Shown here piece after piece: positions 5,865-59,443 of a stretch of 64,000 nucleotides of DNA (the first letter of the stretch is position 1; each line of letters begins with the position of its first letter). Location: the NCBI RefSeq assembly GCF_004010195.1, contig NC_057746.1, positions 2,196,777 through 2,260,776 of the forward strand, in the 5' to 3' direction. Origin of the DNA: Chiloscyllium plagiosum. Taxonomy: Eukaryota. The notes below the pieces were generated by a model, which searched no databases, had not been told where the DNA came from, and saw only the letters and a list, made by a program, of their open reading frames with translations. Both the position numbers and the translations under genes were made by a program.

Positions 5865-7136
5865 ATGGAAGAGAATCCCTTCAAGTGTGAAGTCTGCAAC
5901 CGAACCTTTGCACGGCCATCAACACTTGTGAATCACCGACGCATTCACACTGGGGAGAAGCCGTTTAAGTGTGAGCTGTGCAACCGAGCCTTTGCACAGT
6001 CATCAACACTTGTGAATCACCGACGTATTCACACTGGGGAGAAACCATTCAAATGTGAGGTGTGCAACCAAACATTTGCAAAGTCATCCACACTAGTGAA
6101 TCACCGACGCATCCATACTGGTGAGAGGCCATTTTCATGTGATTTCTGTAACAAAACATTCTCGCAGCCATCAAACCTCCGTGTACACCAACACATTCAT
6201 ACAAAAGAGAAACTATTTACATGCGATGTATGTGATAAATCATTTTCAATGTTAGCGAATCTCCGTGTGCACCAACGCATTCACACCGGGGAGAAACCAT
6301 TCACGTGTAAAATATGCATCAAATCATTTTTGAACTCAGTACATCTCCGCGTACACCAACGTACACACACAGGGGAGAAACCATTCACGTGCAAGGTATG
6401 TGAGAAATCATTCTCCCAGTCATCAAGCCTTTGTGTACATCAACGTATTCACACAGGAGAGAAACCATTTACATGTGAGGTGTGTGACAAATCATTCTCA
6501 CAGTCGTCACACTTCCTCGTGCACCAACGCATTCACACAGGGGAGAAGCCATTCACATGTCAGATATGCAGCAAATCATTCTGTGACTCATCAAAACTCC
6601 TGCTCCATCAGAGGATTCACACAGGGGAGAAACCATTCACATGTGATGTATGCAACAAATCATTCTCAGATTCATCAACTCTCCGCAAACACCAACGCAC
6701 TCACACAGGGGAGAAACCATTCAAATGCGAAGTTTGCAACAAATCATTCTCGAGGTCATCAAAGCTCCTGGTTCATCTGAGAATCCACACAGGGGAGAAA
6801 CCCTTCACATGTGAGGTTTGTGAGAAATCATTTTCAGAGTCATCAAAACTCCTGCTGCATCAGAGGATTCACACAGGGGAGAAACCATTCAGGTGTGAGG
6901 CTTGTGACAAATCGTTCTCCCAGTCATCGATCCTCCGTGTTCACCAACGTATCCACACAGGGGAGAGACCATTTACATGTGAGATATGTGACAAATCTTT
7001 CTCACAGTCCTCAACCCTGTACACACACCAGTGCATCCACACGGGGGAGAAACCATTCGCGTGTGAGGTGTGTGACAAATCATTCTCACGGTCATCGAAC
7101 CTCCTGCTCCATCAGAGGATCCACACAGGGAAGTAA
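5865..7136 (+). CDS. C2H2 zinc-finger protein A, 15 tandem fingers, no effector domain seen
   Basis: 423-aa ORF of CxxC-x12-HxxxH units with TGEKPF linkers; acceptor TTTTACAG at 5473-5480. Confidence 0.93.
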   Translation: MEENPFKCEVCNRTFARPSTLVNHRRIHTGEKPFKCELCNRAFAQSSTLVNHRRIHTGEKPFKCEVCNQTFAKSSTLVNHRRIHTGERPFSCDFCNKTFSQPSNLRVHQHIHTKEKLFTCDVCDKSFSMLANLRVHQRIHTGEKPFTCKICIKSFLNSVHLRVHQRTHTGEKPFTCKVCEKSFSQSSSLCVHQRIHTGEKPFTCEVCDKSFSQSSHFLVHQRIHTGEKPFTCQICSKSFCDSSKLLLHQRIHTGEKPFTCDVCNKSFSDSSTLRKHQRTHTGEKPFKCEVCNKSFSRSSKLLVHLRIHTGEKPFTCEVCEKSFSESSKLLLHQRIHTGEKPFRCEACDKSFSQSSILRVHQRIHTGERPFTCEICDKSFSQSSTLYTHQCIHTGEKPFACEVCDKSFSRSSNLLLHQRIHTGK

Positions 7137-7380
7137 CTCTTTAACTGTGAGGTTTGTGATGAACCTTTTGTCATGTCTTTGACTATCTGGGTCGCCACAG
7201 GATTCAGATACAGGAAGAACACTCTTCAGTTGCAACATTTCTGACAAGGTTTTCACAGTCAGTGGATGTTGTAGCCAATCAATACACTCAAAGAGGGATG
7301 AAGCTCTATCCGTGTGAGTTCTGTATTACATACTTGACACAGTTGTTGGACCTCATAATACATCAGTGAACTCATATGAG
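7137..7380 (+). pseudogene. Degenerate zinc fingers after the stop of gene A
   Basis: FNCEVCDEPF, FSCNISDKVF and YPCEFC relics with stops and frameshifts. Confidence 0.75.
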
Positions 7381-7700
7381 GACTGCCTGACAAAGTTCTT
7401 CACTGTCTGTCCTCAGAGTGTTTACCTGTACACAGTCTCACTGTGCAGGGTGTTCAGTGGGACTGGGACACAGAACAAGAAGCAGCTTTCACTCCCATCA
7501 AACAACTAGTGATGACATCATCAGTGCTGAGGGATTATGATGTAACAATGGAGTCACCCTGCAGTGTGATGTCAGTGAAACAGGACTTGGACTAACCCCC
7601 AGGCAGTGAGGGCAACCCGCTGTGTTTGTATCCAGAGGGTTTACACAAACTGAACAACACTGTGTACAGATTGAGAAACAGAGACTGGATACTGTTTTTG
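7381..7700 (+). mobile_element. Gypsy pol (RT thumb/RNase H) relic
   Basis: VQWDWDTEQEAAF..VLRDYDV..VTLQCDVSETGLG..QPAVFVSRGFTQTEQ..QIEK; homologous to 59660-59930. Confidence 0.85.
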
Positions 7701-7893
7701 CTTCTGAAGGAAGTTGACAATTGCTGAAAAAGAATACTTGTTTTAAAGCTACCCATCTTGAACCCATCACGATAATTTGCAAGATATTCAAAACAGAAAA
7801 AACATTTATATTGTATGATAAAAGAGTAGTGATTGGCAGAGAATTGTCATGAAGAATACACCGGCTAATGACTGACGGTTAATTGCAGAGCTT

Positions 7894-8377
7894 TTGTTAG
7901 AAATGAAAATCGCTTCTCAATAATCGCTCTAGACAAATTCAGGAAAACAAAGTTTTATTAACAAGTCAAGTCTGCAGAGTTGGGCACCCTTGAAGAAAAG
8001 GCGCGCTGAGGCTTCCAAAGTCTCCCATTATATACAGTACAAGTCCCTCCTCTCCTTGGCTCTAACAAGCCATGAGGTTCACATTCTTAAAAACATCATT
8101 ATTTTTATCACAAAGTCTGCAACAAAAGGCTCCAGAGTCTCCAAAGTTTGTTGTTTTTCTCACCCTGTAGTCTTATCAGTCAAAGGCTTTAATCTGAAAC
8201 AGATGTCTCTCAAGTCGTTCCCCCATCCTGGAGTCTTATCAGTCAAGGACTCATCCTTCCCTGCCTGTGTTAATGGTTTCATCAATCAAGGGCCTGTTTG
8301 TTTTTACTCTGCTCACAAATTGTCAGCATTCTGCACAATTTAAACTATTCTACTTTTGAGTATATAAAATGTTCTAG
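7894..8377 (-). mobile_element. Probable solo LTR
   Basis: TG start; AATAAA and TATA-like motifs in LTR order on the minus strand; internal short direct repeats. Right end uncertain. Confidence 0.45.
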
Positions 8378-8857
8378 AAAAGAAACAAAAGTTTTGTCTT
8401 TTATTATAGACCAGTCCGTGGTCCAGGCACATCTTAAAGTTTAAACCGAAATTACCTCTCACAGCTTTGTTTATATTTTAAATCAGGCAGACTGATTCTG
8501 GTGGGTCAAGGCATTGTCCTGAGAAAATTAGGTGTGGCTAACAGCAGCTCTTTGATAATGTGCAGACACCAGATGAATAACCAACAACTTGCACATCTAC
8601 CAGAAGAAGAGTTGAACACTTCAGAGATTAAATACGCAACGTGTGTGTGGGACAGAAACAATTGTAACAGACGAGAGAGAACAAGTAGTGTTTTTTGCAA
8701 TATTTTGGCTTGCTATACTATTGTGACCTCTGATGTCATTAGATTTCAATACAGGTCTCAGGGCAGTAGACATTTTACACACCATATGGAAAGCTGTTTA
8801 AAATGACAAAGGCTCCAACTACTTCTGAAAAGCAGATCAAGGTTTAAACTTGGTTTT

Positions 8858-9057
8858 GTCTCATCTGAATAAAATCTCACTTATTGCAGCTGCTGTCTCA
8901 GTTTCCCTGGTAAATGTTTGACAGAGATTTCCAGTGTGGAAAAAGCATTCTTCATCTTTGGAGTGTTTCAAACTGACAGCATCAGTGTGGGATGTGTATC
9001 CTTGGATGTGTTTGACAGAAGATCAGCAAAGGAAGACCCATAGCATCCAAGGCAGTG
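8858..9057 (-). pseudogene. Orphan copy of the upstream exon of the ZNF cassette
   Basis: Homologous to 38850-39050 and (reverse) 54850-55237; ends GCAATAA|GTGAG. No minus-strand ZNF follows it. Confidence 0.75.
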
Positions 9058-9787
9058 GATAGGATGGTTACAAGAACAGGAGGGAGGGGGGCATGAGCAA
9101 TTATTTCTCCTCCTCCTCTTACACCTTCTTATCTATCCCTTTTCAAAACCCTTCCTTCTTTCTCTCTCTGATCTTTCCACCTGTTTCCTATGCTTACCTT
9201 TCAGTCCCTTCCTCCATCGCTCCTCTGATATTATAAAGGTGAGAGGGATAGACAGTATGTGTGGCATTTTAAACTCGTATCGTAAAGGGAAAAAATTAGG
9301 AACTCTCTGCAGCATTATTGAGGTAATAATATCGTTATGGCTATATTAAAGTATTTTAACTATTTCTCCTGTTTATGTAATATAACAGAAATAAACAGAA
9401 CATCCAAAAACCAAATGTAATTTGAGGAGCCACCTCAAAACAGGGGCAGTCAACAGAAACTCACCACTCTCATTATTCCCATTCGGGCCTGTGGTCATTT
9501 CTGTGGTTCCTAGCTGATGTTTCATAAACGTGTTAAAGATTACAATAATGTAATTTACGTTTGTCAAAATGTACATCTGAAACTCCTGACATGATCAATT
9601 TCAGGCCATGTATGTTGATAAAGCTAATAGAGGCTGTGTAAACTTTAACATGCAACTGATGTGCTTGTGGCTATTGCATATTTGCAAAAGAATTTTACAA
9701 ACCAAGTGGTCAAAACAAAACTCTGTGAGACCAATGGCAGCAGTTTTATTTAAGGTTGGTACATTGTGATCTCAGACGCTTCATGTG

Positions 9788-10138
9788 TAGATTAGATTAG
9801 ATTACTTTTTAGATTAGATTAGATTAGATTACTTACAGTGTGGAAACAGGCCCTTCGGCCCAACAAGTCCACACCGACCCGCCGAAGCGCAACCCACCCA
9901 TACCCCTACATTTACCCCTTTAACCTAACACTACGGGCAATTTAGCATGGCCAATTCACCTGACCCGCACATTTTTTTTTTTGGATTGTGGGAGGAAACT
10001 GGAGCACCCAGAGGAAACCCACGCAGACACGGGGAGAATGTGCAAACTCCACACAGTCAGTCGCCTGAGTCGGGAATTGAACCCGGGTCTCTGGCGCGGT
10101 GAGGCAGCAGTGCTAACCACTGTGCCACCGTGCCGCCC
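9788..10138 (-). mobile_element. HE1/V-SINE-like tRNA-derived SINE
   Basis: GGGCGGCACGGTGGCACAGTGGTTAGCACTGCTGCCTC head with A/B boxes, central TGTGTGGAGTTTGCAC domain, (AATCT)n tail. Confidence 0.9.
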
Positions 10139-11331
10139 ACAAGATATCTACAAGATAATTTTTTAAGACTTTAGATATATTTTAACCCCCTCTATAGTTT
10201 ATAGTCTGTGTAATTCTTGGTCATTATAATTAGTGCGCTAATTTTTTTTTTAGTGCTTTAATCTGGTTTTTGTATTTAGATATCAATGATTGACAGCTAT
10301 CTAGAATCCCATGGGTGGGAAATGGACAAAAGGGTGGTTGAAGAGAGGAAGGCAGCAATGAAAAAAATCTACAATGGACATCCTTGTGATCTCCATTTAG
10401 TGGACAAGAGTCAAAAGGTGTGTTTTTCTTCTCCTAACAACTGCAAGAACTTATTATTTTCCAACTGAGCCTGACAAGCTGAGACCTGAGAGTATTTACT
10501 TTTAAGAAGGCCTTGGATAATAAATGCCCAAGTTGTTTGTTCCAACTAAAGATAGAACTCTGATGAATCTACACAAACTGGTTTAATATGGGAGAAAGCT
10601 ACAAGCTAGGCAGGGGCAAAAGTGAACATATTTGCTTGACAACAACTGCAGATCAGAGGGGATTGGATAATTATTTGTACCAGTATTTCTGACATCCCAA
10701 AAGAAATATCAGCATCACAAGGGGAAGATATATTTTCTTGGAGAAACTACATTATATATCAGATTAAAAACATCGATACATGACACACTTGTTTTGCATT
10801 GTTGTGTAACCAGAGGAAGACCAGAGTCTAGAAGTGGACAGTCCAAGTAAAAGATGAGGTGTCTACAATTTCTTCAATTTTGTACAATGTGGCTGTGTTG
10901 AATAACTGGTGGTCAGGAGCAAGGACTGTTTGTACCAGTACCTCAGAGTGGCCTGCTATCAGCTTTAATCCATATTTATAGAATAATCCAGATCGAGTTG
11001 GACTTGAACCCACAGCCTTATTCTGAGTCGGAGGGTTGTGGGTTCAAATCCGAATCCATAACTTGAGCACAAAAAGTCCCAAATGACACTCCAGTGCAAG
11101 ACTGAGAGATAGAAAAGATTAGAGATAGGGAGGAGCAAGGCCAGGGAGGGATTTGAAAGGAAGTTCAAAGTCCTCACTAAAACTAACACTGCACTTTCCT
11201 GGGAAGAGTAGACTGTTCCTCAAATTTTATTCCTGTCACACTGATTGAACAGTGTCTAAACTATGGAATTTTCCTGTGTGAATGAAAGCAGAATGGTCCA
11301 TCAGCAGCACTGATTAAAGAGAATCCCTTAA

Positions 11332-11897: not shown

Positions 11898-12099
11898 GTT
11901 AAGATATCCATTCCAGCTGACATTAGAGACTACACCTTTCACAGCTTCAGGAACCCAGACACAAAGACAACGCTGACACCTGCAGCTCAAGTTAGTTGCT
12001 ACTTTTAATCAAAATCAAACTTTTTGGCTGCGATTTTGCAGGGGGAAAAGCATTCTGTTTATAGACTGGGAACGAAAGCCCTGAGAAACTGAATCTAGA

Positions 12100-15950: not shown

Positions 15951-16039
15951 TCAGTGCTCTGAGTGATGGGATCTGGATGCTGGATGTCTTTTCAATCTCT
16001 CCAGGTTTCCTAATGCCCTATCACTGTGGATCTCATCAG

Positions 16040-16190: not shown

Positions 16191-16194
16191 TTTT

Positions 16195-19050: not shown

Positions 19051-20577
19051 ATTGTTGCAATGCATGCATTCACTCCTAAAATATTAACCATTGCCTATTC
19101 ACTGTCATGAATTTTAATGGAATCATCCAGTCAATTCCAGTCAATTGCAGACACTTATATCATTGTAGTTTCTTTTGTTCAGATTTAGGAGCCTAGTTTT
19201 AGATTGGACTACTTCAGTTTCTATCCATATGAGAAATTCTGTCACTTTCTTTGAAGGGATCGCTCACAACAAGAAATTAACTCTTTCTCATTGCAAAAAA
19301 CTAGATCTAGGATTGTCTTTCCTGAGTTGGTTCCTCAAAGTACTTGTCTGAAAAAATTTTTGTACACACTCTCAGAATTTACTGAACACAGTATTGTTTA
19401 TGAATGTGGTTTGCCTAGTCTATACACAGATTAAGGTCACCCATGAATATTGTAGCACCCTTACTGTGAGTGTCTCTAATTTTGTGTAGAAAGCCATCCT
19501 CTGCCTCATCACTACTGTTTGGAGGCCTGTGAGATTTGGGTGGAAAATAATCCTGATGCTGCTGATGGCTCACTGCGCCTCTAAGACACCCAGTTTTGGG
19601 ACCTGTCCTGAGTCTACTTCTTTCGTGATGATGAACATGGTGAAGGACTCATTTATCATTTGGGAGGGGATTGGTAGTTTTCCTTGAATTTGTTTGACCT
19701 GAAGGCATTAGACCTTATGGAACCAATATTAAAGACCTTCCTGTCCTGCCAGTGGAATGGACAATCCCAGGGATGGAGACAAAGGAGTCTGGGATGTTTT
19801 CAGATTGATACGATTCAGTCATATTAGCTCACAGTGATTGAGAACCCATTTCAAACTCCACCCAGAAGGTGTTTATCTTTTTCAATGTCCTTGCAATGCC
19901 TGGGAAGATGGTCTGGGGAAGGAAAGAAAGCAGCCATATTGTCTGCTCCTAGGTGTGACAGTCAAGTGAGGAAAAAAAAATCAATTTGTATCTGATTTCC
20001 CCAAACAGGGGAATAGCAGACTGGCACTCACTGTGGAACAGTCTCTCACCGAGGAGTCAGTCTCTTTAGCAAAGGAGGAGAGGGATTTGGAGGAACTCAT
20101 GATTTCTTTTCCTGTTTTACAGAAGGATTGCACTGTACTACACCAGAGAGGATAGACACTGCAGATAGATCCTGAACATCACCCAAGGAATGACTGCACA
20201 ACCGTGGGAAGACATCCAGACCCTTCACAGCATTGCTCAACACAGAGAAGGTTGGGCAGTTAAACCATCATCTGGAAATTGGTTGGGACAGGGGAACTTT
20301 GATACATCATCAGATCTGAAACTGGTCAGTGGGGTGGAGCCTTCCATCAGAACCAACCTTTCTGAGGGTTCGGCTGTGGTGATCAGTCAGGGTGAGGCTG
20401 GGAAGAAGTGTGAGTGGCTTCAAGTGTGATGAGAGCTTCAATCGTTCATGAAGCCTCATGAACCACTGATTCATTCCTACAGGAGAGAGGCTGTTCAAGT
20501 AGGGAGAGGGCTCCACATAACATTTCCAAATACGAAAGGTGCATTTGATGTATTACTGTTAAAAAAAGGACAGGTTC

Positions 20578-21345
20578 ATGGAAGAGAAACAATTCCAGTG
20601 TGAGGTCTGCAAACGAGCTTTTGCAAAGTCATCAACATTGGTGAATCATCGACGCATTCACACAGGAGAGAAGCCTTACAAATGTGAGGTTTGTGACAAG
20701 GCCTTTGCACAATTATCAGCCCTAGTGAATCACCGGCGCACTCACACAAGGGAGAAACCATTCACGTGTGAAGTGTGTAACAATTCATTCTCAGAATCAT
20801 CGACTCTTCGCAAACACCAACGCGTTCACACAGGGGAGAGACCTTTCGTGTGTGAAGTGTGCGACAAATCATTCTCACAGTCATCGACCCTTCATAGGCA
20901 CCAACGCATTCACACGGGGGAGAAACCATTCATATGTGAGGTGTGTGACAAATCATTCTCAAATTCATCACATCTCCGCCGACACCAACCCGTACACACA
21001 GGTGACAAGCCATTCACGTGCAATGTGTGTGACAAATCCTTCTCAGATTCATCAAGTGTCCTACTCCATCAGAGGATTCACACAGGGGAAAAACCATTTA
21101 CATGTGATGTGTGTGACAAATCATTCTCAGTCGTATCTTCCCTTTGTAAGCACCAACGCATTCACACAGGAGAAAAGCCTTTCACATGTGAGGTATGTAA
21201 CAGGTCATTCTCAGTGTTATCAAACTTCCGCAGACACCAACGCATTCACACAGGGGAGAAACCATTCACGTGTGAGGTTTGTGACAAATCCTTTTCAGTG
21301 TCGTGGAATCTCCTGCTCCATCAAAGGAATCACACAGGGGAGTAA
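20578..21345 (+). CDS. C2H2 zinc-finger protein B, 9 fingers
   Basis: 255-aa ORF; acceptor at 20122; decayed fingers continue to about 21590. Confidence 0.9.
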   Translation: MEEKQFQCEVCKRAFAKSSTLVNHRRIHTGEKPYKCEVCDKAFAQLSALVNHRRTHTREKPFTCEVCNNSFSESSTLRKHQRVHTGERPFVCEVCDKSFSQSSTLHRHQRIHTGEKPFICEVCDKSFSNSSHLRRHQPVHTGDKPFTCNVCDKSFSDSSSVLLHQRIHTGEKPFTCDVCDKSFSVVSSLCKHQRIHTGEKPFTCEVCNRSFSVLSNFRRHQRIHTGEKPFTCEVCDKSFSVSWNLLLHQRNHTGE

Positions 21346-32639: not shown

Positions 32640-32940
32640 TAACTCTTGAGGTGTGACAACTGTGTGAGGGATTTCGAACAGATTCAAACCCATTCTGTTG
32701 GGGTTTCTCCCAGGGGTCTGTGTACCTGTGTTGATGGATCAAGAGCTACACTGGCCGTGTGAAAGACTTGTCACACATCTCATATCTGAAAGGTTTCTCA
32801 CAATGTGGATTCGCTGGTGCTTCAGAAGTTTGGAGGAGTGGGTAAAAGCCTCGTCACAAACATTTCACCTGAAGGGTTCTCCCCAAGTGAGTCCTCAGAT
32901 ATTCGAGGAGGGTGAAGTTGTTATGAATGCTTTACCACCT
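32640..32940 (-). pseudogene. Degenerate fingers 3' of ZNF C, separated from it by a CR1 insertion
   Basis: CDEAFTHSSKLLKHQRIH and MCDKSF relics on minus; continuous with 34080-34249. Confidence 0.8.
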
Positions 32941-34249: not shown

Positions 34250-35449
34250 TCATACCTGTAGGGTTTGTCCTGTGTGGACTCTCTGATGTCTCAGGAGGCT
34301 CGTAGACTGTGTGAAACGTTTATCACAAACCTCACATTTGAAGGGTTTCTCCCCTGTATGGACTGTTTGATGAACTAGGAGGCTTGATGAACACGCAAAG
34401 GCTTTGTTACACACTCCACACACGAATGGCTTCTCCCCTGTGTGAATGCGGTAATGTACACGGAGACTCACTGAATGCGAGAATGATTTGTCACACACCT
34501 CGCATGTAAACGGCTTCTCCCCTGTGTGAACAAGTTGGTGGGAACGAAGTTTTGAGGAGCGGGAGAATGATTTGTTACATACGTCACACGTGAAAGGTTT
34601 CTCTCCTGTGTGAATACGTTGATGTATGCGGAGTGTTGATGACTCTGAGAATGATTTGTCACACACATCACACATGAATGGTTTCTCTCCTGTGTGAATA
34701 CGTTGATGTGCATGGAGATTGGATGACTTTGAGAAGGATTTATTGCACACCTCACATTGGAAGGGTTTCTCTCCTGTGTGAACACTCTGGTGCATCAGAA
34801 GCCTGGTAGATGTTGTGAAAGCTTTATCGCAAACCTCACATTTGAAGGGTTTTTCTCCTGTGTGGATTGACTGATGGACCAGGAGGTGTGATAACTGTGT
34901 GAAAGCTTTGTCACACACCTCACAGGTGAACGGTTTCTCTCCTGTGTGAATGCGATGGTGCACATGGAGGGTCACTAAAGATGAGAATGACTTGTTACAT
35001 ACCTCACATGTGAATGGTTTGTCCCCTGTGTGACTATGTTGGTGTATGTGAAGATTCGATAACTGTGAAAAGGATTTGTCACACACCTTGCACTTGAATG
35101 GTTTTTCCCCAGTGTGAATACGTTGATGTCTGCGGAGATTTGATAACTGTGAGAAGGATTTCTCACACACCTCACACTTGAAGGGTTTTTCCCCTGTATG
35201 AATGCGTTGATGTACGCGGAAATTCATTGAGTGTGAGAATGATTTGTTGCACACCTCGCATGTGAAGAGTTTCCCCCGTGTGTGAATAAATTGGTGTTTG
35301 TGAAGACTTGATGAGAATACAAATGATTGATTGCATTCCTTACGTGTGAATGGCTTCTCCACAGTGTGATTGCTCTGGTGCATGTGAAAATTTGAGGAAT
35401 CTGGGAAATCCTGATCATACAGCCCAGACTTGACTGGATTCTCCTCCAT
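34250..35449 (-). CDS. C2H2 zinc-finger protein C, 12 intact + 2 degenerate N-terminal fingers
   Basis: ORF 34250-35500; start set at MEENP (35449) by paralogy; acceptor at 35880. Confidence 0.9.
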   Translation of the reverse strand: MEENPVKSGLYDQDFPDSSNFHMHQSNHTVEKPFTRKECNQSFVFSSSLHKHQFIHTRGKLFTCEVCNKSFSHSMNFRVHQRIHTGEKPFKCEVCEKSFSQLSNLRRHQRIHTGEKPFKCKVCDKSFSQLSNLHIHQHSHTGDKPFTCEVCNKSFSSLVTLHVHHRIHTGEKPFTCEVCDKAFTQLSHLLVHQSIHTGEKPFKCEVCDKAFTTSTRLLMHQSVHTGEKPFQCEVCNKSFSKSSNLHAHQRIHTGEKPFMCDVCDKSFSESSTLRIHQRIHTGEKPFTCDVCNKSFSRSSKLRSHQLVHTGEKPFTCEVCDKSFSHSVSLRVHYRIHTGEKPFVCGVCNKAFACSSSLLVHQTVHTGEKPFKCEVCDKRFTQSTSLLRHQRVHTGQTLQV

Positions 35450-36941
35450 GGGGAAGATCAATAGATGCACTTTACACGTCTTATGACATGATGGGCCCAA
35501 CTCAAACTTGAACAGTCTCTCATATGTAAGAATCAGTCAGTAGTTCATGAGGCTTGATGAATGATTGAAGCTCTCACCACACTTGGAGCCAATCATACTT
35601 CTTCCCAGCCGCACCTTGACCGATCACCCACAGCCGAACCTTCAGAAAGGTTGGTTCTGATGGAAGGCTCCACACCACTGACCAGTTTCAGATCTGATGA
35701 CGAGTCGAAGCGCCCCCCGACCTGACCGATTTCCAGATGATGGTTTCACTGCCAAACCTTCTCTGTGTTGGGACTGGATGTCTTCGCACAGTTGTGCAGC
35801 TGGTCCTTGGGTGATGATCAGGATCTGTCTGCAGTGTCTATCCTCGCTATATTCTCTGGTGTAGTTCATTGCAATCTTTCTGTAAAACACAAAAAGGAAA
35901 AATTATTTCCTTCAACGCCCTCTCTTCCTTTGCTGAAGAGGCTGAATGCTCAGTTTACAGACTGTTCCACAGTGAGTGCCAGTCTGCTATTCTCCTGTGT
36001 GGTGGAATTAGATACAAATTATTTATATTTCCTCACTTGACTGTCACATATCCTCTGTTTCTAGCAGGGACACTGGATAGTGACGAAGAGCAGACAATGT
36101 GGCTCCTTTCTTTCTTCCACCCAGATCTCCATCTTCCCAGATACCATTAAAGTAATGGAAAAGACAGTTGGGCTGAGTGTAAAATGGGTTATCGATTGAC
36201 CTTGAATTTGTGTTGTGCTAGCGTGGACCAGTTTTACCCTTCAGGATTGTGTGTCATACAAAAACACTCAAGAAAAATATGTTAATTCAGTGGAGGTCTA
36301 AAAGGCTAGTTTTTGAAGAAAATTATTTGAAGAAAGCACACTGAGCAGGAAGTGCAAGAAGCTGAGGAAAACATTGTTTCAGTTAGCTGATGGAAGGGTT
36401 CTGGTTTATAGTGGGAAATTAGATATAAATGCATTGCATTCACTCAGACGGCACGTCCCAAATTCAGTCATCAGCCACAGCACTGGGCCAAACGATCAAA
36501 TCCAAACCCAGGCTTTTGGGAAAGATTTTCAGGAAAACTCTTTAAGGAAGATATTAGAAGATGTTGCAATCAGTGTGTCTCCAGGTATGGCAGTTGAAAT
36601 GCTATGGTGCTGGATTAACAATCACAGAAAGTTACACACATATAATTATGGTGAGAAACAGGCCATTTGGCCCAATTCGATATGCTTCACATGAGCCTCC
36701 TCTCAATCTCTTCATCACACCCCATCAGCAGATCCTTCTGATCCTTTCTCTCTCATGTGCACCGGGGGTTCAATTCCCATCATCGGTATGAGGTTATCAT
36801 GAAGGACTCTCAACCTCTTCCCTCACCCAAGTTCTGGTAGCCCTCAGGTTAAATCACCACCAATTGCTCCTCTCTAATAAGAGAGTAGCCCCTATGGTCT
36901 GGTAAGACTATGGTGACACAACAGCTTATCTAGTTTTTTTT

Positions 36942-40444: not shown

Positions 40445-40984
40445 GCTGAAATTGCTGAGAAAGACAAACGGATCCCACATTGACCATAAAACCTCAACAA
40501 CAGATTATTGGTTTTTAATGAGCCACTAACATGTGGATGTAACTTATTTGGTGAGACAACAGTTGACGTTGGACGCTGACTATGTCTCTATAAAAGCTGT
40601 GTCCACAACTTCCACAGCACAGTGACCATTACAGCTGGTTTCACACAAAATAATCCAACATTTCAACACTTCCTCACAAAATGTTCCTGTAATTTGTGAT
40701 AAAAATGTTTTATATTGAGATTGTAATATCTCTAATAGAAGAATAGATGTCAACATTTATCAGTTTTGTCCCAAAATCTTGTGAAACTCAACATCTCCAG
40801 AAATACCTCGGTCATTGCAACAATAGCTCACATTTGGTGAGAAAATGTTGAAGAGATTTTCTCTGGAAGTGTCTACCTGTATTTGTTGGAGAGAGGGACA
40901 GGCCATCTACTCAAACATGACTGAATTGCAGTCCCAAGCCCAGAAAGCTTCCCCTTCACTGAGATTCTTCCACAGGAACTCAGC

Positions 40985-41440
40985 TCAATTCGAACCGCAC
41001 ACAATCCCGCTTCGAACTACATTACCCATGCTGCATGTGGGACCCCACGCCTGAGCAGTGAGAGGCGGCCGCATGAAATCTGGGGAGAGCCAGTCCGCGG
41101 TGCCTGACGGGGGTTGTAGTTCTGATACACGCAACGGCGATGGGCGCCCAGCGATCGGGAATTTGAGGTCAACCCCTGTACATGGCTAAAAGTCACACAA
41201 CACCAGGTTATACCAGGTGCCCACAACCACCTGATGAAGGAGCAGCGCTCCGAAAACTAGTGCTTCCAATTAAACCTGTTGGACTGTAACCTGGTGTTGT
41301 GTGATTTTTAATTTTGTACACCCCAGTCCAACACCGGCATCTCCAAATCCTGTAAATGGCGGCCTCTGGTGGTTGGAGTCGCGATCGCAACCCGTTCCCC
41401 TCCTCGGGAGTTCCCCATGTCCGTTCAGGCCCTCGTCCCT
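40985..41440. promoter_or_regulatory. Candidate CpG-rich bidirectional promoter with two ZNF143/SBS motifs and a YY1-like site
   Basis: GAACTACATTACCCATGCTGCA (+, 41014-41035); GAACTACAACCCCCGTCAGGCACCGCGG (-, 41095-41122); AAATGGCGGC at 41354. Lies between divergent genes C and D. Confidence 0.65.
41187..41348 (+). mobile_element. Family B hammerhead element in the promoter
   Basis: TSD CCTGTA(C/A)ATGGC; CTGATGA at 41231; short inverted 5' end. Confidence 0.85.
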
Positions 41441-41629
41441 CCTTCAATGTAACCCCAATGCCTCCTCTTTCTCTTTCTTAAGCTAATTTCTAACGCTCTG
41501 AAGACCTGTGCAGTGGAACTATCTGTGCTCTTAGCCAAGCAGTTCTAGTTCAGCTGCAATATCTATGTGACAATGTGAAAAATTGCCAAGGTGTGTCTTC
41601 AAATTTGCATGACGTTAACTGTCCTCCAC

Positions 41630-44085: not shown

Positions 44086-46482
44086 GTTCTGTCTTTTCAA
44101 ATTTGTCCAAGACCTCCCACCATTCTCTTGCTATAAGAAATGAAAAGTTGTATTTATATCGAGGCTTTCACGACTACAAGAAATTTGAAAATGCTTTACC
44201 ATTAATGAAATATTTTTGAAGGTGGTCACTGTTGTAATGTAGGAGATGTGACAGTTCATGTGCAAATAGCAAGATCCCAAATGTGTTAACACTCTCACAA
44301 TTTACCATGGATCATTGAACTGTGTTTAAGGTCCTGTATAAATGCAAATTATTGTTTATTGTGTAAAATGTCAGATTGTGACCAGGCATTCAGTTATAGC
44401 AGCGTAATTCCCCTTATACTTCACCATCCAACTGAACCTTTGCTGTGAAGCAGTTTCCCAGACTCCCAGTAAAAGAAGATATAGTTATAACCTCAGATCT
44501 TCAGCACTGCAGGGTAGGAATGGATGAACACGGGTTCAAACTCGATGTGTTAAGGAGCATTGCAAGATGACCACTTGGGCTGTGGTTGCTCTCCCAGTGT
44601 GACTGGCAGGGATTTGGTTCCTGCTATTAATCTAGGTAGACAGAGAAAGAAATAGTTAGAGGGACAGCAGTAAAGGGAGAGCCATTACTCCTGTTGACAT
44701 GTCTATTTACTCGTTTAATGATAATCATGAAATGAGGGCTGCGCTGGGCTGTGAGATTGTGGTGGAGTCTAATCCTGCTGCTGCTGATGGCTCACTGCAC
44801 CTCAAGGACATCTAGTCTACATCCCTTTTAATGATGAACATGATGAAGGACTCATTTATCAGTTGGGCAGAGAGCAATAGATTTCCTTGAAATTTGCTCG
44901 ACCTGAAGCTGTAGGTTGGATGCCTTGGGTTTGTGATAGGGGTCAGTCAGTCATGTCAGGTGAGGATAATTTTTGCGAGGTAATGAGGGCAGTTGGGTGG
45001 ATTGGGATTTTGTGTGGGTTGGCAAAGGTCAGTGTAAGTGATTGCTGTGTTTGTTCTGGAATTGTCCAGATGTTGGACTAAGAAATTTTATTTCTACCTA
45101 AAATTTCTTGGTTAACTATTGGTTAAGTACTGTACCATATAAATGTCCAAAGTCTCTAACTCTGAATCAAAATCAAAGACATTTATGTTCAAGGGAGCAG
45201 GCAAATTGTCCATCTTCTGATGTATTCTGGGGTATTCCGGTCAATGAGTCAGGACTTCGACAGGGTCCTGAAGTACACATTAGGTCATCTATCTGGCCTC
45301 TGAACATCTCAACATTTGGTCCACTGGTTGAAAAGTCCATTTTTTTCCAGAACGCTTCATTATTTCCCAAACGCATGGGCTTGGATTTGATCATTTTTGC
45401 CCAGAGCTGTGGCTGAAAACTGAATTTGGGATGTGCAATCTGAGTGAGTGCAATTGATCTAAATTGGTAGATTAAACGGTACCCTTCAGTCAGCTACACT
45501 GAAACAGTATTTTCCTTAGCTTCTAGAACTTCCTCCTCAGTGTGTTTTCCTCAAATAAGTTTGGAAAACAAAGGGAGAACTTTCAAAATCTTTATTGAAT
45601 TAATATTTCTCCAGAATGTTTTTACATTAAGCAAAGACTCTAAGGTCTTCATCAGGAAGAGTCAAGCTCACAGTGGACTGACAGCCAGTGTTACATTCTA
45701 CCCAACTGTTTTTTCCATTGTCCTCACAATGCCTGGAAAGATGAGGTTCTTGGAGGTGGGAACAATGTGGCCATGTTGTCTGCTCCTGGCCACTATGCAG
45801 TGTTCCTGCTGGAAACAGGGATACATAGCAGTCAAGTGAGGGAAACGAAAATACTTTATCTGACACCTCCCCCCCCGCCTCCGTGCCCACCACCACCACC
45901 AAAGAAAAGCCCCCCACATAGGGAATAGCAAACTCACTGTGGAGTCAGCCCCTTCAGTAAAAGAGAGGAAGTTGGAGGAAATCATACTTCCTTTTCCTGT
46001 TTTACAGAAGGATTGCCCCGTACTACAGCAGAGAATACAGGGAGGACAGACACTGCAGAGAGATCCTGACCATCACTGAAGGAACAACTTCACAACTGTG
46101 GGAAGACATCCAGTCCCTTTGCAGGATTGCTCAACACAGAGAAGGTTGAGCAGTCTAGCCATCATCTAGGAATCAGTCAAGTCAGGGGAGCTTTGACACA
46201 TCATCAGATCTGAAACTGGTCAGTGGAGTGGAGCCTTCCATCAGAACCAGCCTTTCTGAAGGTTCGGCTGTGGGTGATCGATCAGGGTGAGGCTGGGAAG
46301 AAGTGTGAGTGGCTCCAAGTGTGGCGAGAGCTTCAATCATTCATTGAGCCGCATTAACCAGTGACTAATTCCTTACAGGGGAGAGGCTGTTTGAGTGTGA
46401 GGTGTGAGAGGAGGGCTTTACAGCCTCATAAGATCCTTCAACACACAAGGTGCATCGGTTTTATAACTGTTAACACATCAAC

Positions 46483-47694
46483 ATGGAGGAGAAGCTGTTC
46501 AGGTGTGAGGTTTGTGAGGTGCGTTTTACTCGATCCTCTGATCTCCTGAGGCACCAGAGGATCCACACAGGGGAGAAACCCTTCCAGTGTGAGGTGTGTG
46601 ACCGAGCCTTCGCACATTCATCAACACTAATGAATCACCGGCTCATCCATACTGGGGAGAAACCATTCAAGTGTGAGGTTTGTGATCAGGCCTTCACACG
46701 GTTATCGACTCTCATGAATCACCGATTCACCCACACAGGGGAGAAGCCGTTCAAGTGTGAGGTGTGTGAGCAAGCCTTTACTTGGCCAACCACTCTCATG
46801 AAACACCGACGTGTTCACACTGGGGAGAAACCATTCAAGTGCGAGGTGTGTGACAAGAACTTTGCGCAGTCATCAGCCTTGGTGGATCACCGACACATTC
46901 ACACAGGGGAGAGGCCTTTCATGTGCGAGGTTTGCACCAAATCATTCTCGCAGTTATCATCCCTCCGCGTACACCAGCGCATTCACACAAGGCAGAAGCT
47001 GTTCAAGTGCGAGGTATGTGACAAATCCTTCTTGCACTCATCTCATTTTCGTGTACACCAGCGCATTCATGCAGGGGAGAAGCCATTCAGTTGCGGGGTA
47101 TGTGACAAATCGTTCTCACATTCATCGACCCTCCGTGCACATCAACGTATTCACACAGGAGAGAAGCCATTCAGGTGCGAGGTTTGTATGAAGGCTTTCA
47201 GCTACTCCTCAAATCTGCTGAGGCATCAGAGGATTCACACAGGGGAGAAACGCTTTAAGTGTGAGATGTGTGACCGAGCATTCACACATGCAGCAACTCT
47301 CGTAAATCATCGACGTGTGCACACCGGGGAGAAGCCATTCACGTGTGAGGTATGTAACGAGGGCTTTGCAGGATCGTCAGGCCTGGTGAATCACCAGCGC
47401 ATTCACACAGGGGAGAAACCGTTCACTTGTGAGGTGTGTGGCAAATCATTCTCACGGACTTCGACTCTTCGTGAACACCAACGCATTCATACAGGGGAGA
47501 AGCCATTCGCGTGCGAGGTATGTGAGAAAACTTTCTCAAATTCGTCCCACTTTCGCGTGCATCAACGTATTCACACGGGAGAGAAACCCTTCACCTGTGA
47601 GGTGTGTGACAAAGCTTACAGAACCTCCTCGAATCTCCTAATTCATCAGAGAATCCACACTGGGGGAGAAACCCTTCAAGTGAGAAATTTATGA
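46483..47694 (+). CDS. C2H2 zinc-finger protein D, 14 fingers
   Basis: 403-aa ORF; acceptor at 46007; ends by a frameshift in the last linker, followed by decayed fingers to about 48020. Confidence 0.92.
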   Translation: MEEKLFRCEVCEVRFTRSSDLLRHQRIHTGEKPFQCEVCDRAFAHSSTLMNHRLIHTGEKPFKCEVCDQAFTRLSTLMNHRFTHTGEKPFKCEVCEQAFTWPTTLMKHRRVHTGEKPFKCEVCDKNFAQSSALVDHRHIHTGERPFMCEVCTKSFSQLSSLRVHQRIHTRQKLFKCEVCDKSFLHSSHFRVHQRIHAGEKPFSCGVCDKSFSHSSTLRAHQRIHTGEKPFRCEVCMKAFSYSSNLLRHQRIHTGEKRFKCEMCDRAFTHAATLVNHRRVHTGEKPFTCEVCNEGFAGSSGLVNHQRIHTGEKPFTCEVCGKSFSRTSTLREHQRIHTGEKPFACEVCEKTFSNSSHFRVHQRIHTGEKPFTCEVCDKAYRTSSNLLIHQRIHTGGETLQVRNL

Positions 47695-52493: not shown

Positions 52494-54877
52494 CTAGAAA
52501 TAGAAACTGATTGGTCCAAGGTCACTGGATCTCTGTAACCATTGGTGGGATCCTCTTCCGATGATGAGTGTTTGACTAATACCATGGGTAATGTTGTACT
52601 CTCCTTTCTGGGTGGACTGCTATCCTGAGTATGGGGAGGGAGTAGGGTTGAGTCTCTACAGATCTGAGTTCCCTCAGTCCATTATACTTCAATGTAATAA
52701 TGGTGTGATATGTTCACCTTACACTCTTCCAAGATTCATTTCATGACCTGGGAAGGATCTTGAATAATTTTGAAATGCTTTGTTATTTTGGTTGATTTAA
52801 AATTTGATGCACACTGAATATTCCATTGATTCATGTTATTTAGGACGGTTTTACCAATTTCTGTACAGGTTTATAATTTGATAAATTAATTTATCAGCTG
52901 ACACAAAGCTCTCTGATCTGTCAGCCTGGTGTGTTCCTATTCAAAATGCTGAATATCCTACAGTAAGAGTTTTGTATGCAATATATTGCTCAATTTCCCT
53001 GTGGGATGAGATCCTTTCTCTATCAATAGGTTTATAATTTCTAGTTCCCAGGAAGCAGATCATTTCCAGATGAAAGAAAGATTTGTTTTTATATATCAAT
53101 TTTCACAATCTCGATCTGTCTGAAAGCACCTCCCTTTTAATAAAGTGCTTTTGAAGAGTAGTTAGTTATGATGAAAGAAACATTGGCAACTATTTTTTGC
53201 AAATTGGGTGGCTACAAAATGTGATGCTAACCAGATGATATATTTTTGTGAGAGTGTATTGATATCTACATTGATCAGGGCATGAAGGATAACTCCAGTC
53301 TTCCACAGTTATAGCAGGTGGCTTGGAATTTTAATCACTTCAAGTTTATCAATGTATTAAAATAAATAGAAAAGTATCTCTCCTTTGGAAATGGGTTGGA
53401 CTGAAGAGGTAAAGCACTAGTTTTCTTAGGTTTGCAATGTGTTTATTCAGACCCCCAGCTGTTGTTTCAGTTCAATCTATAAGTAGTTTGTGGATTATGT
53501 CTAAAGATCCTCAAATCTATGGTATAAAAGAATAAGAGTATTTATTACTTATTTATCATAATTTCTATTGTTAATAAGCCTATGCTTTGTTTTATTATTA
53601 AAATAAAGACTGCAACATTCCGTGCTTATATTTTANNNNNNNNNNNNNNNNNNNNNNNNNNNNNNNNNNNNNNNNNNNNNNNNNNNNNNNNNNNNNNNNN
53701 NNNNNNNNNNNNNNNNNNNNNNNNNNNNNNNNNNNNNNNNNNNNNNNNNNNNNNNNNNNNNNNNNNNNNNNNNNNNNNNNNNNNNNNNNNNNNNNNNNNN
53801 NNNNNNNNNNNNNNNNNNNNNNNNNNNNNNNNNNNNNNNNNNNNNNNNNNNNNNNNNNNNNNNNNNNNNNNNNNNNNNNNNNNNNNNNNNNNNNNNNNNN
53901 NNNNNNNNNNNNNNNNNNNNNNNNNNNNNNNNNNNNNNNNNNNNNNNNNNNNNNNNNNNNNNNNNNNNNNNNNNNNNNNNNNNNNNNNNNNNNNNNNNNN
54001 NNNNNNNNNNNNNNNNNNNNNNNNNNNNNNNNNNNNNNNNNNNNNNNNNNNNNNNNNNNNNNNNNNNNNNNNNNNNNNNNNNNNNNNNNNNNNNNNNNNN
54101 NNNNNNNNNNNNNNNNNNNNNNNNNNNNNNNNNNNTGTAGTTTTGAGTTTTCTTTAATTAAGGAGACCAAAACTCTGGCCAGTACTCGAGATGGGGTCAC
54201 ATTTTTGCCACTGGTTTTAGGGCTGGGACTAACTGATGATAACCTAGACAATTCACTGGGGGAAACACACAGCAGTTATTGGAGCAATATAAAGGAGTGA
54301 AAACAGCTCTTTGCCAAGTTGTCAAATGCACAAACTCATAAACAGAGGTGCCAGACCAGGCGCAGAGACTGACAAATGTTACCTTTAATGTGTTTTTGCA
54401 AGAAACCTTGTCGGACCTTATTAACAACATTCATCATTTGAGATATTCCAAATGTGACAATGTTACTAGCTTATGAGAAAATGACCTGAAAACAAAGGAC
54501 AAAAATAATTCTCCGGACTGAAAATAACAGAATCTGAATAATACACAACAATAATTCTTCCAGACCTATGTAAGAATGTGTGTACCTTCCACAAGTCCAA
54601 GATGTAAAATCCAGGATTGTGGTGCACTTCTTCCTGCCATACTTCATGTCGTACCTGGAGATCTTTTAACCTGGTAGGTTGTATTTCTGATGCATACATT
54701 TCAAATTTGTGTGTGTGCAGGAGGGATTATCATTGTTAGCAGTTTGGAACAGGAACACCTGTAAGTCCCAGGAATGTGTGAACCTCCTTCCTGTTCCCGT
54801 CTTTCTCCCCTTTCCTGTGCATGTGCCGATCTCATCATTACACAACATCAGTGTTGCTGTGGGTCTACCTCTTCTGA

Positions 54878-55067
54878 GGAGAAAGTGAGGTCTGCAGATG
54901 CTGGAGATCAGAGCTGAAAATGTGTTGCTGGAAAAGCGCAGCAGGTCAGGCAGCATCCAGGGAACAGGAGCTCATTCCTGAAGAAGGGCTTATGCCCGAA
55001 ACGTCGATTCTCCTGTTCCTTGGATGCTGCCTGACCTGCTGCGCTTTTCCAGCAACACATTTTCAGC
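54878..55067. mobile_element. Family A hammerhead element in the upstream exon of cassette copy 5
   Basis: 14-bp TSD TCTACCTCTTCTGA; intact core 54978-55005 on +. Confidence 0.88.
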
Positions 55068-55605
55068 TCTACCTCTTCTGACCTGCTTACGAACACACAT
55101 CCACTGACACTGTTAGTTTGAAACTCTCCGAGGATGAAGGATGCTATTCCCACACTAGAAATCTCTGTCAATCATTTACCAGGGGAACTGAGACAGCAGC
55201 TGCAATAAGTGAGGTTTTATTCAGATGGGACAATGACNNNNNNNNNNNNNNNNNNNNNNNNNNNNNNNNNNNNNNNNNNNNNNNNNNNNNNNNNNNNNNN
55301 NNNNNNNNNNNNNNNNNNNNNNNNNNNNNNNNNNNNNNNNNNNNNNNNNNNNNNNNNNNNNNNNNNNNNNNNNNNNNNNNNNNNNNNNNNNNNNNNNNNN
55401 NNNNNNNNNNNNNNNNNNNNNNNNNNNNGTGTGTTTATTGGAAGCATTTCCCTCTGATTTCCAGGCTGAGTTTTGTTGATGACTGATTCCTGAGTATGAG
55501 AAGGTGAACTATAGTTATCTGGGAGATGCAGAGTGTCTGAGGATTCTTACTTATTTCCTGCTGTTGAGTTCTGTGTGCGTTGGGTGTTGGTTATTATCAT
55601 GAGGT
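55068..55605 (+). repeat. ZNF 5' cassette, copy 5 (core falls in N gap); micro-exon 55465-55503
   Basis: Both gap flanks match the cassette. Confidence 0.75.
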
Positions 55606-57009
55606 TTGTAATTTGTACAGTTCCTAGGAGAATGTTGCCTCATTGCATGGAATAGGAGTTGTGTTGAAGCTCTTATGGTGCAGTGGTTGTGACCATACCT
55701 CTGAGTCTGGAGGCCCAAGTACAAGGCCCACATGATCTAGCGGTGTATAATAACATATCTGAAAAGGTTGATTTTAAAAAATGGAGTCAGCCACGTCGTG
55801 TCTCGAGTATGCCCCACCATTTACCAAGATCATAGTGTTTCTGTAACCTCCATATTTCTGCTCTTTCCCTAATTCCCTTCAAAACTTTGGTGAAAAAAAA
55901 ATCCATCTCAGATTTGATAGAAGTTGCAGATTTAGCATTAATTGTCAATTATGGCAATGAGTTCCAATCTTCTCCCACTCTTTGTGTGTCACAGTAGTTC
56001 CTTATTTCACTCCAAAAAGATCTGACTGTGTTCTTTGGATAATGCCCTGGATCTAGACTCCCCATCCGATAAAAATAAGTTACTTCCATTGGCGTGAATT
56101 CTTCACTTTAATATTTCAAAAACGTTCATCAGATCATCTTTTAACCTTCTAAGCACTGAGGAATATAACCCTATTTGTTTAAGCTCTCCTCATTATGTAA
56201 CCCTTGCAGCTCAGGGATCATTCCAGTACTGTAAATCTGTACTGCATTCCCCCCAAGGCCAATACCTTATGTGTGGTGAGTTATCTAGAATTGTTCTCAG
56301 TAGTCTAGTGATAATCAAACCAGGGCTTTGTGTCACTGAAATATGTTGTTTCTGTGTCGCCATAGTCTTATCAGAACGTAGGGACTGCTTTCATATTAGA
56401 GAGAGACAGAAGTGACTGTGGTCATTTAACCTGAGGGCCACCAGATCTCAAGCGAGGGAAGAGATTGAGAAGGAGAGTCCTTCATGGTAGCCTCAAACCA
56501 GTGATGGGAACTGAACCCACACTGTTGGCATCACACTGCTCTGTAAACCAATGATGCAACCAACTGAGCTAAGCATTCTCACTGAAATATGACTTCTACC
56601 CCATAATATTCCTTTTCTCAAGCCATTTCCATTATCCTATACTTTATGTATCTCTTCATGACATTTTAATGATGTCAATACCTTGGTCCCCAGGTCTCTT
56701 ATTACCTTTTTCAGTATCCTGTTCATTACTATTTATGAAATAACAACCCCTCTACCCTGTTCCACTCCCAATGCCACTGACTCACCACTTCTATCCCACA
56801 TTTACAGCTGATCGGATCAACAAAGAACTTGAGAAGGCAAATTTGCTGGAGAGATACCGTGTGAGTGGAGTAGCAACTCCTCACACCTTCTATCCATTCT
56901 GTTTCTGGGGCCAGCCGTCCTCTGATTGGTCACCCTATTGTTGCATTTCCCTGAGCATCTTGCAGGTTTTTTTGCCATATATGTACCCGTTATCTGCATG
57001 TATTTAAGT

Positions 57010-57680
57010 GCAGATTGTGGGGTTAATATTGACCAGAAGTTGAGCTGGATCAGCCATGTAAACACAGTGGCTGCAAGGGGCTAGGAATCCTGAGTGAGTA
57101 ACTCACTTCCTGACTCCATAGATCCTGTCCACCATCTATAAGACACAGATCAGGAGTATGATGAAATATTCTCCTCTTGCCTGGAAGTGTACAGCACCAG
57201 CAATACTCAGAAAGCTCAACAGCACCACCAGGACAACAAAGCCCACTTGACTGCCACTCCATCCATCACTTGCATTGTTCATTCCCTCCAAACTGTCAGA
57301 CAGTGGTAGCACTCCTGAAGATGCACTGCAGCAACTCATTAAGATTCCATCCACATCACCATCCATACCCATGATCCCCACCACTTGGAAGGTTAGGACA
57401 AAAGGTGTCTTAACAGTAAAACCTGTAAGATCCACCACTGCCACTGCCATCCCCCCCACCCACCCACCGCCAAACTTCACGCCACCATGGCTTGGAACTC
57501 TACTTTGATTCCTTCACTGTCACTATTCAAACTTCTGGAACTCGCTTCCAGACAGTACTATGTGTGTCCTGACATCCCAATGGCTACAATGGTTCAAGAA
57601 GGCAGCTCATCACCACCTTCTCAAAGGCTGTTAAGAAAGGGTAGTAAATTCTGGCTTAACCTGTCATGCAGTCTTCCTAT
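57010..57680 (+). mobile_element. CR1/L2-related LINE fragment
   Basis: TIYKTQIRSMMKYSPLAW relic. Confidence 0.7.
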
Positions 57681-58112
57681 GAAGGTTTAGGTAAAGAAAA
57701 CTGTTCACCGAGGGTGGAAAGGGTGATGGAGGAAGTCACGATTCCTCTTCCTGTTTTACACAAGGATTGCACCGTATTGTATCACAGAGGATGGAGGATT
57801 TTGCAGATACAAAAAGGATTGATACGATAGATAGATCCTGACAACCCAAGGAATAACCTAAATCAGACAGTACAGAGAAGGTTGGGCAGTGAAACCATTG
57901 TCTGGAAATAGATTAGGTCAGGAGAATTTTGACACATCATCAGATTTGAAACTGGTGAGTGGTGTGGATCCTTCCATCAGAACCAACCTTTCTGGAGGTT
58001 TGGCTGTGGGTGATCAGTCAGGGGAGGTTGGGAAGAAGTGTGAGTGGAGTCCAATGTGGTGAGAGCTTCAGTCATTCACCGAGGGTCATGAACCACTGAC
58101 TCATTCCTACAG

Positions 58113-58231
58113 TGGAGGAGCCAGTGTTGGACTGGGATGGACAAAGTTCAAAATCACTCTGCAGAAACTTGATGTCTGTGTCACTTCCAAATAAACCTGT
58201 TGGACTATAACCTGGTGTTGTGTGTTTTTTA
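58113..58231. mobile_element. Family B remnant (no ribozyme core) in the leader of ZNF E
   Basis: 14-bp TSD ACTCATTCCTACAG; paralogues lack it. Confidence 0.85.
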
Positions 58232-58339
58232 ACTCATTCCTACAGGTGAGAGGTGTGTGAGGTGACTGATACAGGCTCCCAGGATCTAATATCATTCAGG
58301 ATGCTTCTGTTACACAACTATTGACTTAAAGACAGCAAC

Positions 58340-59443
58340 ATGGAAGAAAAGCCCTTCAAGAGTGAGATATGTGACCGAGCCTTCATGCAGACATCAGCAC
58401 TCGGGGAACGCCAATGGATTCACACTGGGAAGGAGCCGTTCGAATGTGAGGTGTGTAAGCAGAACTTTACAAAGTTATCAGGCCTGGTGAATCATCGCCG
58501 TGTTCACACTGAGGAAAAACCATTCACGTGCGAGACTTGTGACAAATCGTTCTCACAGTCATCAAAGCTCCTAATGCATCAACATATTCACACAGGGGAG
58601 AAACCCTTCACATGTGAGGTGTGTACCAAATCATTCTCTGATTCTTCGACCCTCTGCAAACACCAACGCATTCACACACAGGAAAAACCATTCACATGTG
58701 ACACATGTGACAAATCGTTCTCACACTCAGAAAACCTCCGTAGACACCAACGCATTCACACAGGAGAGAAACCATTCAATTGTGAGGTTTGTAACAAATC
58801 ATTCTCACAATCAGTGAACCTCCGTGCACACCAACGTATTCACACAAGGGAAAAACCATTCAAATGCGAGATGTGTGACAAATCATTTTCATCGTCATCG
58901 AACCTCCGCACGCACCGACGCATTCACACGCGGGAGAAACCATTTACTTGTAAAGTGTGTGACAAGTCATTCTCGGATTCATCCGCCCTTCGTAGACACC
59001 AACATCTTCACACAGGAGAGAAACCATTTGTGTGTGAGGTCTGTGACAAATCATTTGCAGACTCATCAAGACTTCTGCTCCATCAGAGGATTCACACAGG
59101 GGAGAAACCATTCACATGTGAGGTGTGTAACAAAGCATTTTCAGTGTCATCGGCCCTCCACAAGCACCAGGGCATTCATGCAGATGTGAAGCCATTCACA
59201 TGTGAGGTGTGTGACAAATCATTCTCACAGTCAGAGAACCTCCGCACGCACCAACGTATTCACACAGGGGAGAAACTGTTCATGTGTGAGGTGTGCAACA
59301 AATCATTCTCACGGTCGTATAACCTTCGCAGACACCAATATGTTCACACGGGAGAGAAACCATTCACATGCAATGTGTGCAACAAATCATTCTCGAGGTC
59401 TTGGGACTTCCTCGTCCATCAGAGGATCCACACAAGGAAATAA
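58340..59443 (+). CDS. C2H2 zinc-finger protein E, 12 intact + 1 degenerate finger
   Basis: 367-aa ORF with TGEKPF linkers. Confidence 0.9.
   Translation: MEEKPFKSEICDRAFMQTSALGERQWIHTGKEPFECEVCKQNFTKLSGLVNHRRVHTEEKPFTCETCDKSFSQSSKLLMHQHIHTGEKPFTCEVCTKSFSDSSTLCKHQRIHTQEKPFTCDTCDKSFSHSENLRRHQRIHTGEKPFNCEVCNKSFSQSVNLRAHQRIHTREKPFKCEMCDKSFSSSSNLRTHRRIHTREKPFTCKVCDKSFSDSSALRRHQHLHTGEKPFVCEVCDKSFADSSRLLLHQRIHTGEKPFTCEVCNKAFSVSSALHKHQGIHADVKPFTCEVCDKSFSQSENLRTHQRIHTGEKLFMCEVCNKSFSRSYNLRRHQYVHTGEKPFTCNVCNKSFSRSWDFLVHQRIHTRK

Follow-up and report, generated by a model that had tools for sequence, protein, structure and literature searches.

Finger-only zinc-finger ORFs in a shark cluster share a conserved leader core and a start codon in finger-linker register

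Can an array of C2H2 zinc fingers serve as a gene without an effector domain fused to it, and where would such a gene begin? This question is raised by a stretch of 64,000 nucleotides (nt) from the shark Chiloscyllium plagiosum (NC_057746.1; hereafter the window), in which six-frame translation gave five open reading frames (ORFs), named Z1–Z5 (Table 1). We found that no other DNA is as well conserved among these five paralogues as the leader in front of each start codon, a feature absent from the initial annotation of the locus. Our results suggest that the locus is probably an old tandem cluster of functional, effector-less poly-C2H2 shark genes, translated from an ATG that opens the sequence Met-Glu-Glu (MEE).

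The finger ORFs and their start codons

All five ORFs begin with the pattern MEE-N/K-x-F/V noted in the initial annotation (MEENPF in Z1, MEEKQF in Z2, MEENPV in Z3, MEEKLF in Z4 and MEEKPF in Z5). The first cysteine is residue 8 in each, as in TGEKPFxC, and Met-Glu falls exactly on the Thr-Gly of the TGEKPF register, in agreement with the proposal that the start replaces the TG of a finger linker. At the nucleotide level, 11–13 of the first 18 nt agree with the majority of the finger units. Because the Thr codon of internal linkers is ACG in five of 59 cases, one transition from ATG, and the Gly codon is GGG or GGA in 48 of 59, the change from Thr-Gly to Met-Glu would take two transitions only. 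A decayed finger lies 70–110 nt 5′ of the ATG (~245 nt in Z5, behind an insertion), but the last 15–30 nt before the ATG are only weakly finger-tail-like, being in the top 1–4% of background in three of the five genes at 15 nt, with all log-odds negative. ATG-GAR is kept at the start in all five genes, with a G at +4 throughout.

Finger units were defined as 28-residue cuts counted from the Met of each ORF, and all four ligands (C, C, H and H) were present in 62 of the 65 units, as expected from the earlier description of the ORFs as almost wholly fingers. Pfam analysis of Z1–Z5 gave finger-type or spurious small-domain families and, again as described, no KRAB, SCAN or BTB domain among the families listed (25 of 26 for Z5). 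Each ORF, as known from genomic DNA, therefore holds 9–15 intact tandem fingers, that is at least five, without an effector domain, and the locus is a cluster of single exons with tandem C2H2 fingers and TGEKP linkers. Across 62 fingers the entropy was 3.33 bits at helix position −1, 2.82 at +3 and 3.09 at +6, compared with 1.44 bits at +2, where Ser is found in 47 fingers; the claim that recognition residues differ widely among the paralogues thus stands for −1, +3 and +6 but not for +2. None of the five proteins was present in the protein collection by exact look-up. Protein searches with finger queries returned generic zinc-finger (ZNF) proteins at up to 55% and up to 65% identity, with no named shark protein among the 120 matches listed for each, and were uninformative on the range of the family; the finger proteins matched generic finger clusters in the ESM Atlas.

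The leader and its conserved core

The five genes have a common order of parts, consisting of a conserved splice acceptor, a leader of 384–578 nt, the ATG, the fingers, a stop codon and decayed fingers. The acceptor-like site has 16–17 pyrimidines out of 20 in all five, values reached by 1.2% and 0.4% of the AG sites of the window, and its AG is intact in four. Each leader retains the decayed remains of a linker-like frame and of a finger with a common stop. At the other end, the stop codons of Z1, Z2 and Z5 fall at one and the same position of the linker, Z3 and Z4 are ended by a frameshift in the last linker, and the ORFs are open although the fingers on both flanks are frameshifted. Each gene is thus an excerpt of a longer finger exon that has acquired its own start and end.

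Within the leader, a 180-nt core showed 82–91% identity in all ten paralogue pairs, compared with 48–67% in the decayed fingers behind the stop, 35–63% in the intron and ~50% at fourfold sites (core versus flanks, Fisher p from 3e-4 to 3e-19, the core having been chosen after inspection). One 15-mer is exact in all five genes and occurs once per gene. In Z5 the 5′ part of the leader is down to 50–56% identity, whereas its core still has 82–87%; since Z5 lacks the AG and yet keeps the core, the constraint on the core is independent of that acceptor. The Z5 leader also contains a ~120-nt repeat insertion (~58113–58232) bounded at either end by a 13-nt direct repeat, and the T-rich end of this insertion creates, at 58245, a site that could replace the dead acceptor at 57761.

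A search of the core translation against 1.84 billion protein representatives gave seven matches, of which three are real; these are gene models of sharks belonging to two orders, namely Chiloscyllium punctatum (85%), Scyliorhinus torazame (79%) and S. canicula (51%), whereas the other four look like repeats or chance, as judged in part from two of them. In the S. canicula model XP_038663154.1, the match to the leader frame starts at residue 3 of the model (72% over 47 amino acids), which we take as a sign of splicing at the same acceptor, and the C. punctatum model passes through several frames of the leader. Leader homologues were thus seen in shark gene models only, consistent with the shark origin proposed for the family. 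A further protein search with the leader peptide gave none in 35 candidates, the peptide had no match in Pfam or the ESM Atlas, and Rfam and ARAGORN gave no match. Scans of metagenomes with a 31-letter pattern found nothing, and 67 matches to a 17-mer were put down to chance because none extends beyond 24 nt. A conserved RNA fold of the core was unsupported (sense z from −2.6 to 0.0 over 100 nt and from −1.2 to +0.4 over 150 nt), the folds differing among paralogues with two-sided changes in 5 of 62 consensus pairs. Recoding or readthrough of the leader frame was rejected as its breaks differ among paralogues. An antisense ATG frame runs over the core (46178–46360 antisense, ~52 codons in Z4) and is also found in the paralogues. 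The core may be held by selection as a cis-element that would control translation, splicing or transcription.

Table 1. Positions of the ORFs, leaders and other features in the window
Feature	Position	Strand	Description
Z1 leader	5481..5864	+	Acceptor 5480/5481; decayed linker frame and finger; 3 upstream ATGs; core 5608-5787
Z1 ORF	5865..7136	+	423 amino acids; 15/15 fingers intact; decayed fingers after stop
Z2 leader	20123..20577	+	5 upstream ATGs; core 20265-20444
Z2 ORF	20578..21345	+	255 amino acids; 9/9 fingers intact
Detached decayed finger remnant behind Z3	32701..32888	-	Cut off from rest of trailer by inserted sequence, by eye like a long interspersed nuclear element
Z3 ORF	34250..35449	-	399 amino acids; 12/14 units intact; units 1-2 degenerate
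Z3 leader	35450..35879	-	5 upstream ATGs; core 35563-35742
Candidate bidirectional promoter	40900..41500	.	Between divergent Z3 and Z4; CpG patch; predicted from sequence
Z4 leader	46008..46482	+	0 upstream ATGs; core 46159-46338
Z4 ORF	46483..47694	+	403 amino acids; 14/14 fingers intact
Z5 leader	57762..58339	+	Main acceptor AG changed to AC; 6 upstream ATGs; core 57895-58074
Z5 ORF	58340..59443	+	367 amino acids; 12/13 units intact; unit 1 broken

Search for a fused effector

An in-frame stop lies 15, 15, 87, 9 and 15 nt before the ATG in Z1–Z5 respectively. The AG sites between the last stop and the ATG have at most 12 pyrimidines out of 20, Z4 has no such site, and no usable acceptor is present there in four of the five genes. 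Pfam was also run on the 293 upstream sense-strand frames of the window that were stop-free, N-free and at least 42 amino acids long; no KRAB, SCAN, BTB or SET match was obtained, the single match being an RVT_1 fragment. Nor was a short acidic N-terminal exon of the FiNZ type found in frame, as judged from stops and acceptors and not from a FiNZ profile. The finger-only reading is supported by the stops near the ATG, the lack of a good acceptor behind them and the lack of an effector match in the upstream frames scanned, and the earlier suggestion that the family possibly works without a fused effector agrees with these results.

Selection and age of the cluster

Codon models were fitted on two trees of the fingers, with three degenerate units dropped and codons 1–2 of the first fingers masked. 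The ratio of non-synonymous to synonymous rates (dN/dS, or omega) of the scaffold was 0.22–0.24, and 0.28–0.29 without the C/H ligand positions (p<1e-34 on two trees), so the neutral dN/dS that, together with a lack of expression, had been named beforehand as refuting the first interpretation was not observed. Helix position +2 was conserved (omega 0.11–0.27), +3 and +6 were near neutral (0.5–1.0), and positions −1, 3 and 6 pooled gave 0.87–1.13 (p>0.5). At −1, omega was 1.8 with shared dS (p=0.0003) and 2.4–3.0 with its own dS (p=0.03–0.04, uncorrected), and because the finger tree is poorly resolved, these values denote diversification, with positive selection at −1 borderline and only suggested. 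The uniform scaffold and widely differing helix residues of the initial annotation correspond to purifying selection on the scaffold and fast change at −1, +3 and +6.

The chance of a stop-free ORF at 10% neutral divergence was 0.9–5.4% per gene, and open frames would rarely survive 10–20% neutral divergence. Finger identity averaged 68% within genes and 67% between genes. Since no finger pair exceeds 87% identity and the flanks are at 48–67%, the five copies are old duplicates; there is no sign of recent expansion within the window, and the suggestion of an expanding family was not borne out.

Promoter candidate and repeats

The candidate promoter between Z3 and Z4 contains an SBS2-like (ZNF143/THAP11) site at 41016–41035, a second ACTACA motif, at 41120 on the opposite strand, and a motif at 41354 that we take to be YY1-like. 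The 20-letter SBS2 form had one match against 0.08 expected (8 of 100 shuffles), and the 13-letter THAP11 motif had three matches in the window against 1.7 expected, which is not above chance. The candidate promoter also includes, between its two groups of motifs, a copy of a repeat family (41221–41348; also 23406–23533). No non-repeat CpG patch was found upstream of Z2 (7137–20122) or Z5 (47695–57761), and no promoter could be assigned to Z1, Z2 or Z5 in the window; Z2 and Z5 could possibly be alternative last exons served by shared promoters, or have promoters that lie in the N gaps at 53636–54135 and 55238–55428.

Of the non-ZNF, non-satellite bases, at least 17,892 of 48,829 (36.6%, a lower bound without a genome background) have another copy in the window. 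A GC-rich 32-bp tandem repeat (2295–4474, 68 copies, 95% matches) lies ~1 kb 5′ of the Z1 acceptor, and a 34-bp tandem repeat (8.3 copies) is found at 61893–62174. Palindromic elements, in which short repeats stand head to head with 81–94% arm identity, occur at 17422–17636, 23441–23663, 24965–25160, 40230–40411 and 54910–55070.

Discussion

We propose that the ancestor of the family was a KRAB-ZNF-like last exon made up of an acceptor, a linker of ~90 codons and a finger array. Translation of its front part together with the fingers would have ceased, the Thr-Gly of a linker would have turned into the Met-Glu start, and stops would have trimmed the 3′ end. A non-coding first exon may now be spliced to the leader acceptor (for Z3 and Z4, from the CpG/ZNF143-type promoter at ~41.0–41.4 kb), and ribosomes would scan the leader, with its 0–6 upstream ATGs, to the MEE ATG. 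The resulting protein of 9–15 fingers would bind DNA with paralogue-specific helices and may regulate by occupancy or through finger-bound cofactors, not through a fused domain. That the proteins bind transposons is a tentative suggestion, made by analogy. A wider proposal, which we consider unlikely as it stands, is that the cluster belongs to a large effector-less shark ZNF family whose former N-terminal part has become a shared leader module under strong selection (a cis-acting RNA or DNA element, or a separately translated peptide) that co-regulates the family; besides KRAB and FiNZ, this would be a third way of turning rapidly evolving finger arrays on repeats.

Several observations weigh against effector-less genes translated from the MEE ATG. 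The start ATG has a pyrimidine at −3 in Z1–Z3, and upstream ATGs (3–6 per leader) precede it in Z1, Z2, Z3 and Z5, Z4 having none. The acceptor AG is lost in Z5, and only one CpG patch for five genes lies outside ORFs, leaders and repeats. The AG at +6 in Z3, with 15 pyrimidines out of 20, could admit an in-frame exon, and exons below 42 codons, in N gaps or to the left of the window fall outside the effector scan. Finally, the core has a weak third-position bias, unexpected for a purely non-coding element: over the last 95 nt, 12 synonymous versus 9 non-synonymous changes were counted (5.9 expected, p=0.005 uncorrected), a borderline result for a stretch picked after the fact in 30 region-frame tests.

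This bias bears on the possibility that the linker frame of the leader, with an upstream exon, is or recently was a separate short protein or upstream ORF, the core being its coding remnant. The majority leader does give a long frame that runs from the acceptor to the common TGA and is interrupted by a single stop, at a column that varies among the paralogues; the breaks of the frame are private to each gene, and portions of it are translated in three shark gene models, one of which has its end at the same position. However, the frame is broken in all five paralogues, the signal is absent over the whole leader (41/98, p=0.21) and the antisense frame has the same bias. As the C. punctatum model also crosses several frames and the peptide has no Pfam or Atlas counterpart, we regard a split effector of this kind as clearly unlikely. 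A mostly pseudogenic cluster, with leader identity due to gene conversion, might be suspected from the decay at both array ends in every gene, the broken first fingers of Z3 and Z5 and the dead acceptor of Z5. The low dN/dS of the finger tree may also reflect older selection in part, and one or two copies such as Z5 may have died recently. The disrupted frames and dN/dS near 1 expected of pseudogenes are not seen, the scaffold lying at 0.22–0.29 with five open frames, and conversion within one cluster leaves the core in two shark orders unexplained; this explanation is quite improbable.

Very improbable, in our estimate, is an unrecognized short FiNZ-like exon joined to the finger frame through a cryptic acceptor close to the ORF or within it. 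KRAB-ZNF and FiNZ-ZNF genes do have a two-exon plan, according to the available part of PMC10547256, FiNZ-sized exons are below the 42-codon scan, and the AG of Z3 is a fair site, but the frame is closed within 9–15 nt in four of the five genes, with no pyrimidine tract there, and ATG-GAR is kept in five out of five.

Effector-less genes translated from the MEE ATG can be compared with known systems as these are described in the available parts of the cited papers. ZNF-only genes are a recognized class (Liu et al. 2014, PMC3971581) that comprises 212 models in human and hundreds in each species, and their polydactyl members likewise have many tandem C2H2 fingers without KRAB, SCAN or BTB; the human genes are mostly old and conserved, whereas the shark paralogues share a derived linker start and a conserved leader. 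Like KRAB-ZNF clusters, the locus is tandem, with a single finger exon opened by an acceptor and a linker, TGEKP linkers, finger gain and loss and, as a candidate here, a ZNF143-type promoter site, such sites being enriched at human KRAB-ZNF promoters (PMC3627581). Effector loss or decay is known in mammalian KRAB-ZNF clusters (Tadepally et al. 2008, PMC2443715) and KRAB families are reported to be under-represented in cartilaginous fishes (PMC8455134, PMC11603059). Unlike in KRAB-ZNF genes, no KRAB exon was found in the scanned frames of the window, and loss of the head appears ancestral to all five genes, not sporadic. Cyprinid FiNZ-ZNF genes (Wells et al. 2023, PMC10547256) are similarly a lineage-specific poly-finger family with fast helices in repeat-rich DNA, but FiNZ is a 28-amino-acid acidic exon spliced in frame, whereas stops close the shark frame ahead of the ATG, and repression of transposable elements, demonstrated for FiNZ, would apply to the shark cluster by analogy only. 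The cluster is thus not a member of the KRAB or FiNZ systems, though it may work like them.

Supplement file 2 of PMC10547256 gives, in the rows available, 703–3586 ZNF ORFs in six shark rows, 1223 in skate and 475 in chimaera, and the available main text does not mention shark, chondrich or cartilaginous. The literature searched on shark ZNFs, FiNZ, ZNF-only genes and internal starts, which included few subscription papers, contained no description of the family, its start or its leader, nor of the head carried by shark ZNFs. ZNF-only genes have been described before, as have large numbers of ZNFs in sharks; the conserved leader core common to the five paralogues is new. Finger sequences give searches swamped by unrelated ZNFs, unlike the 180-nt core, which offers a family-specific probe and eases both a census of the family and a reporter test. 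Sharks carry hundreds to thousands of poly-finger ORFs but apparently lack a KRAB-ZNF system, and the cluster described here suggests that one of their families has no head and yet evolves like a DNA-binding repertoire.

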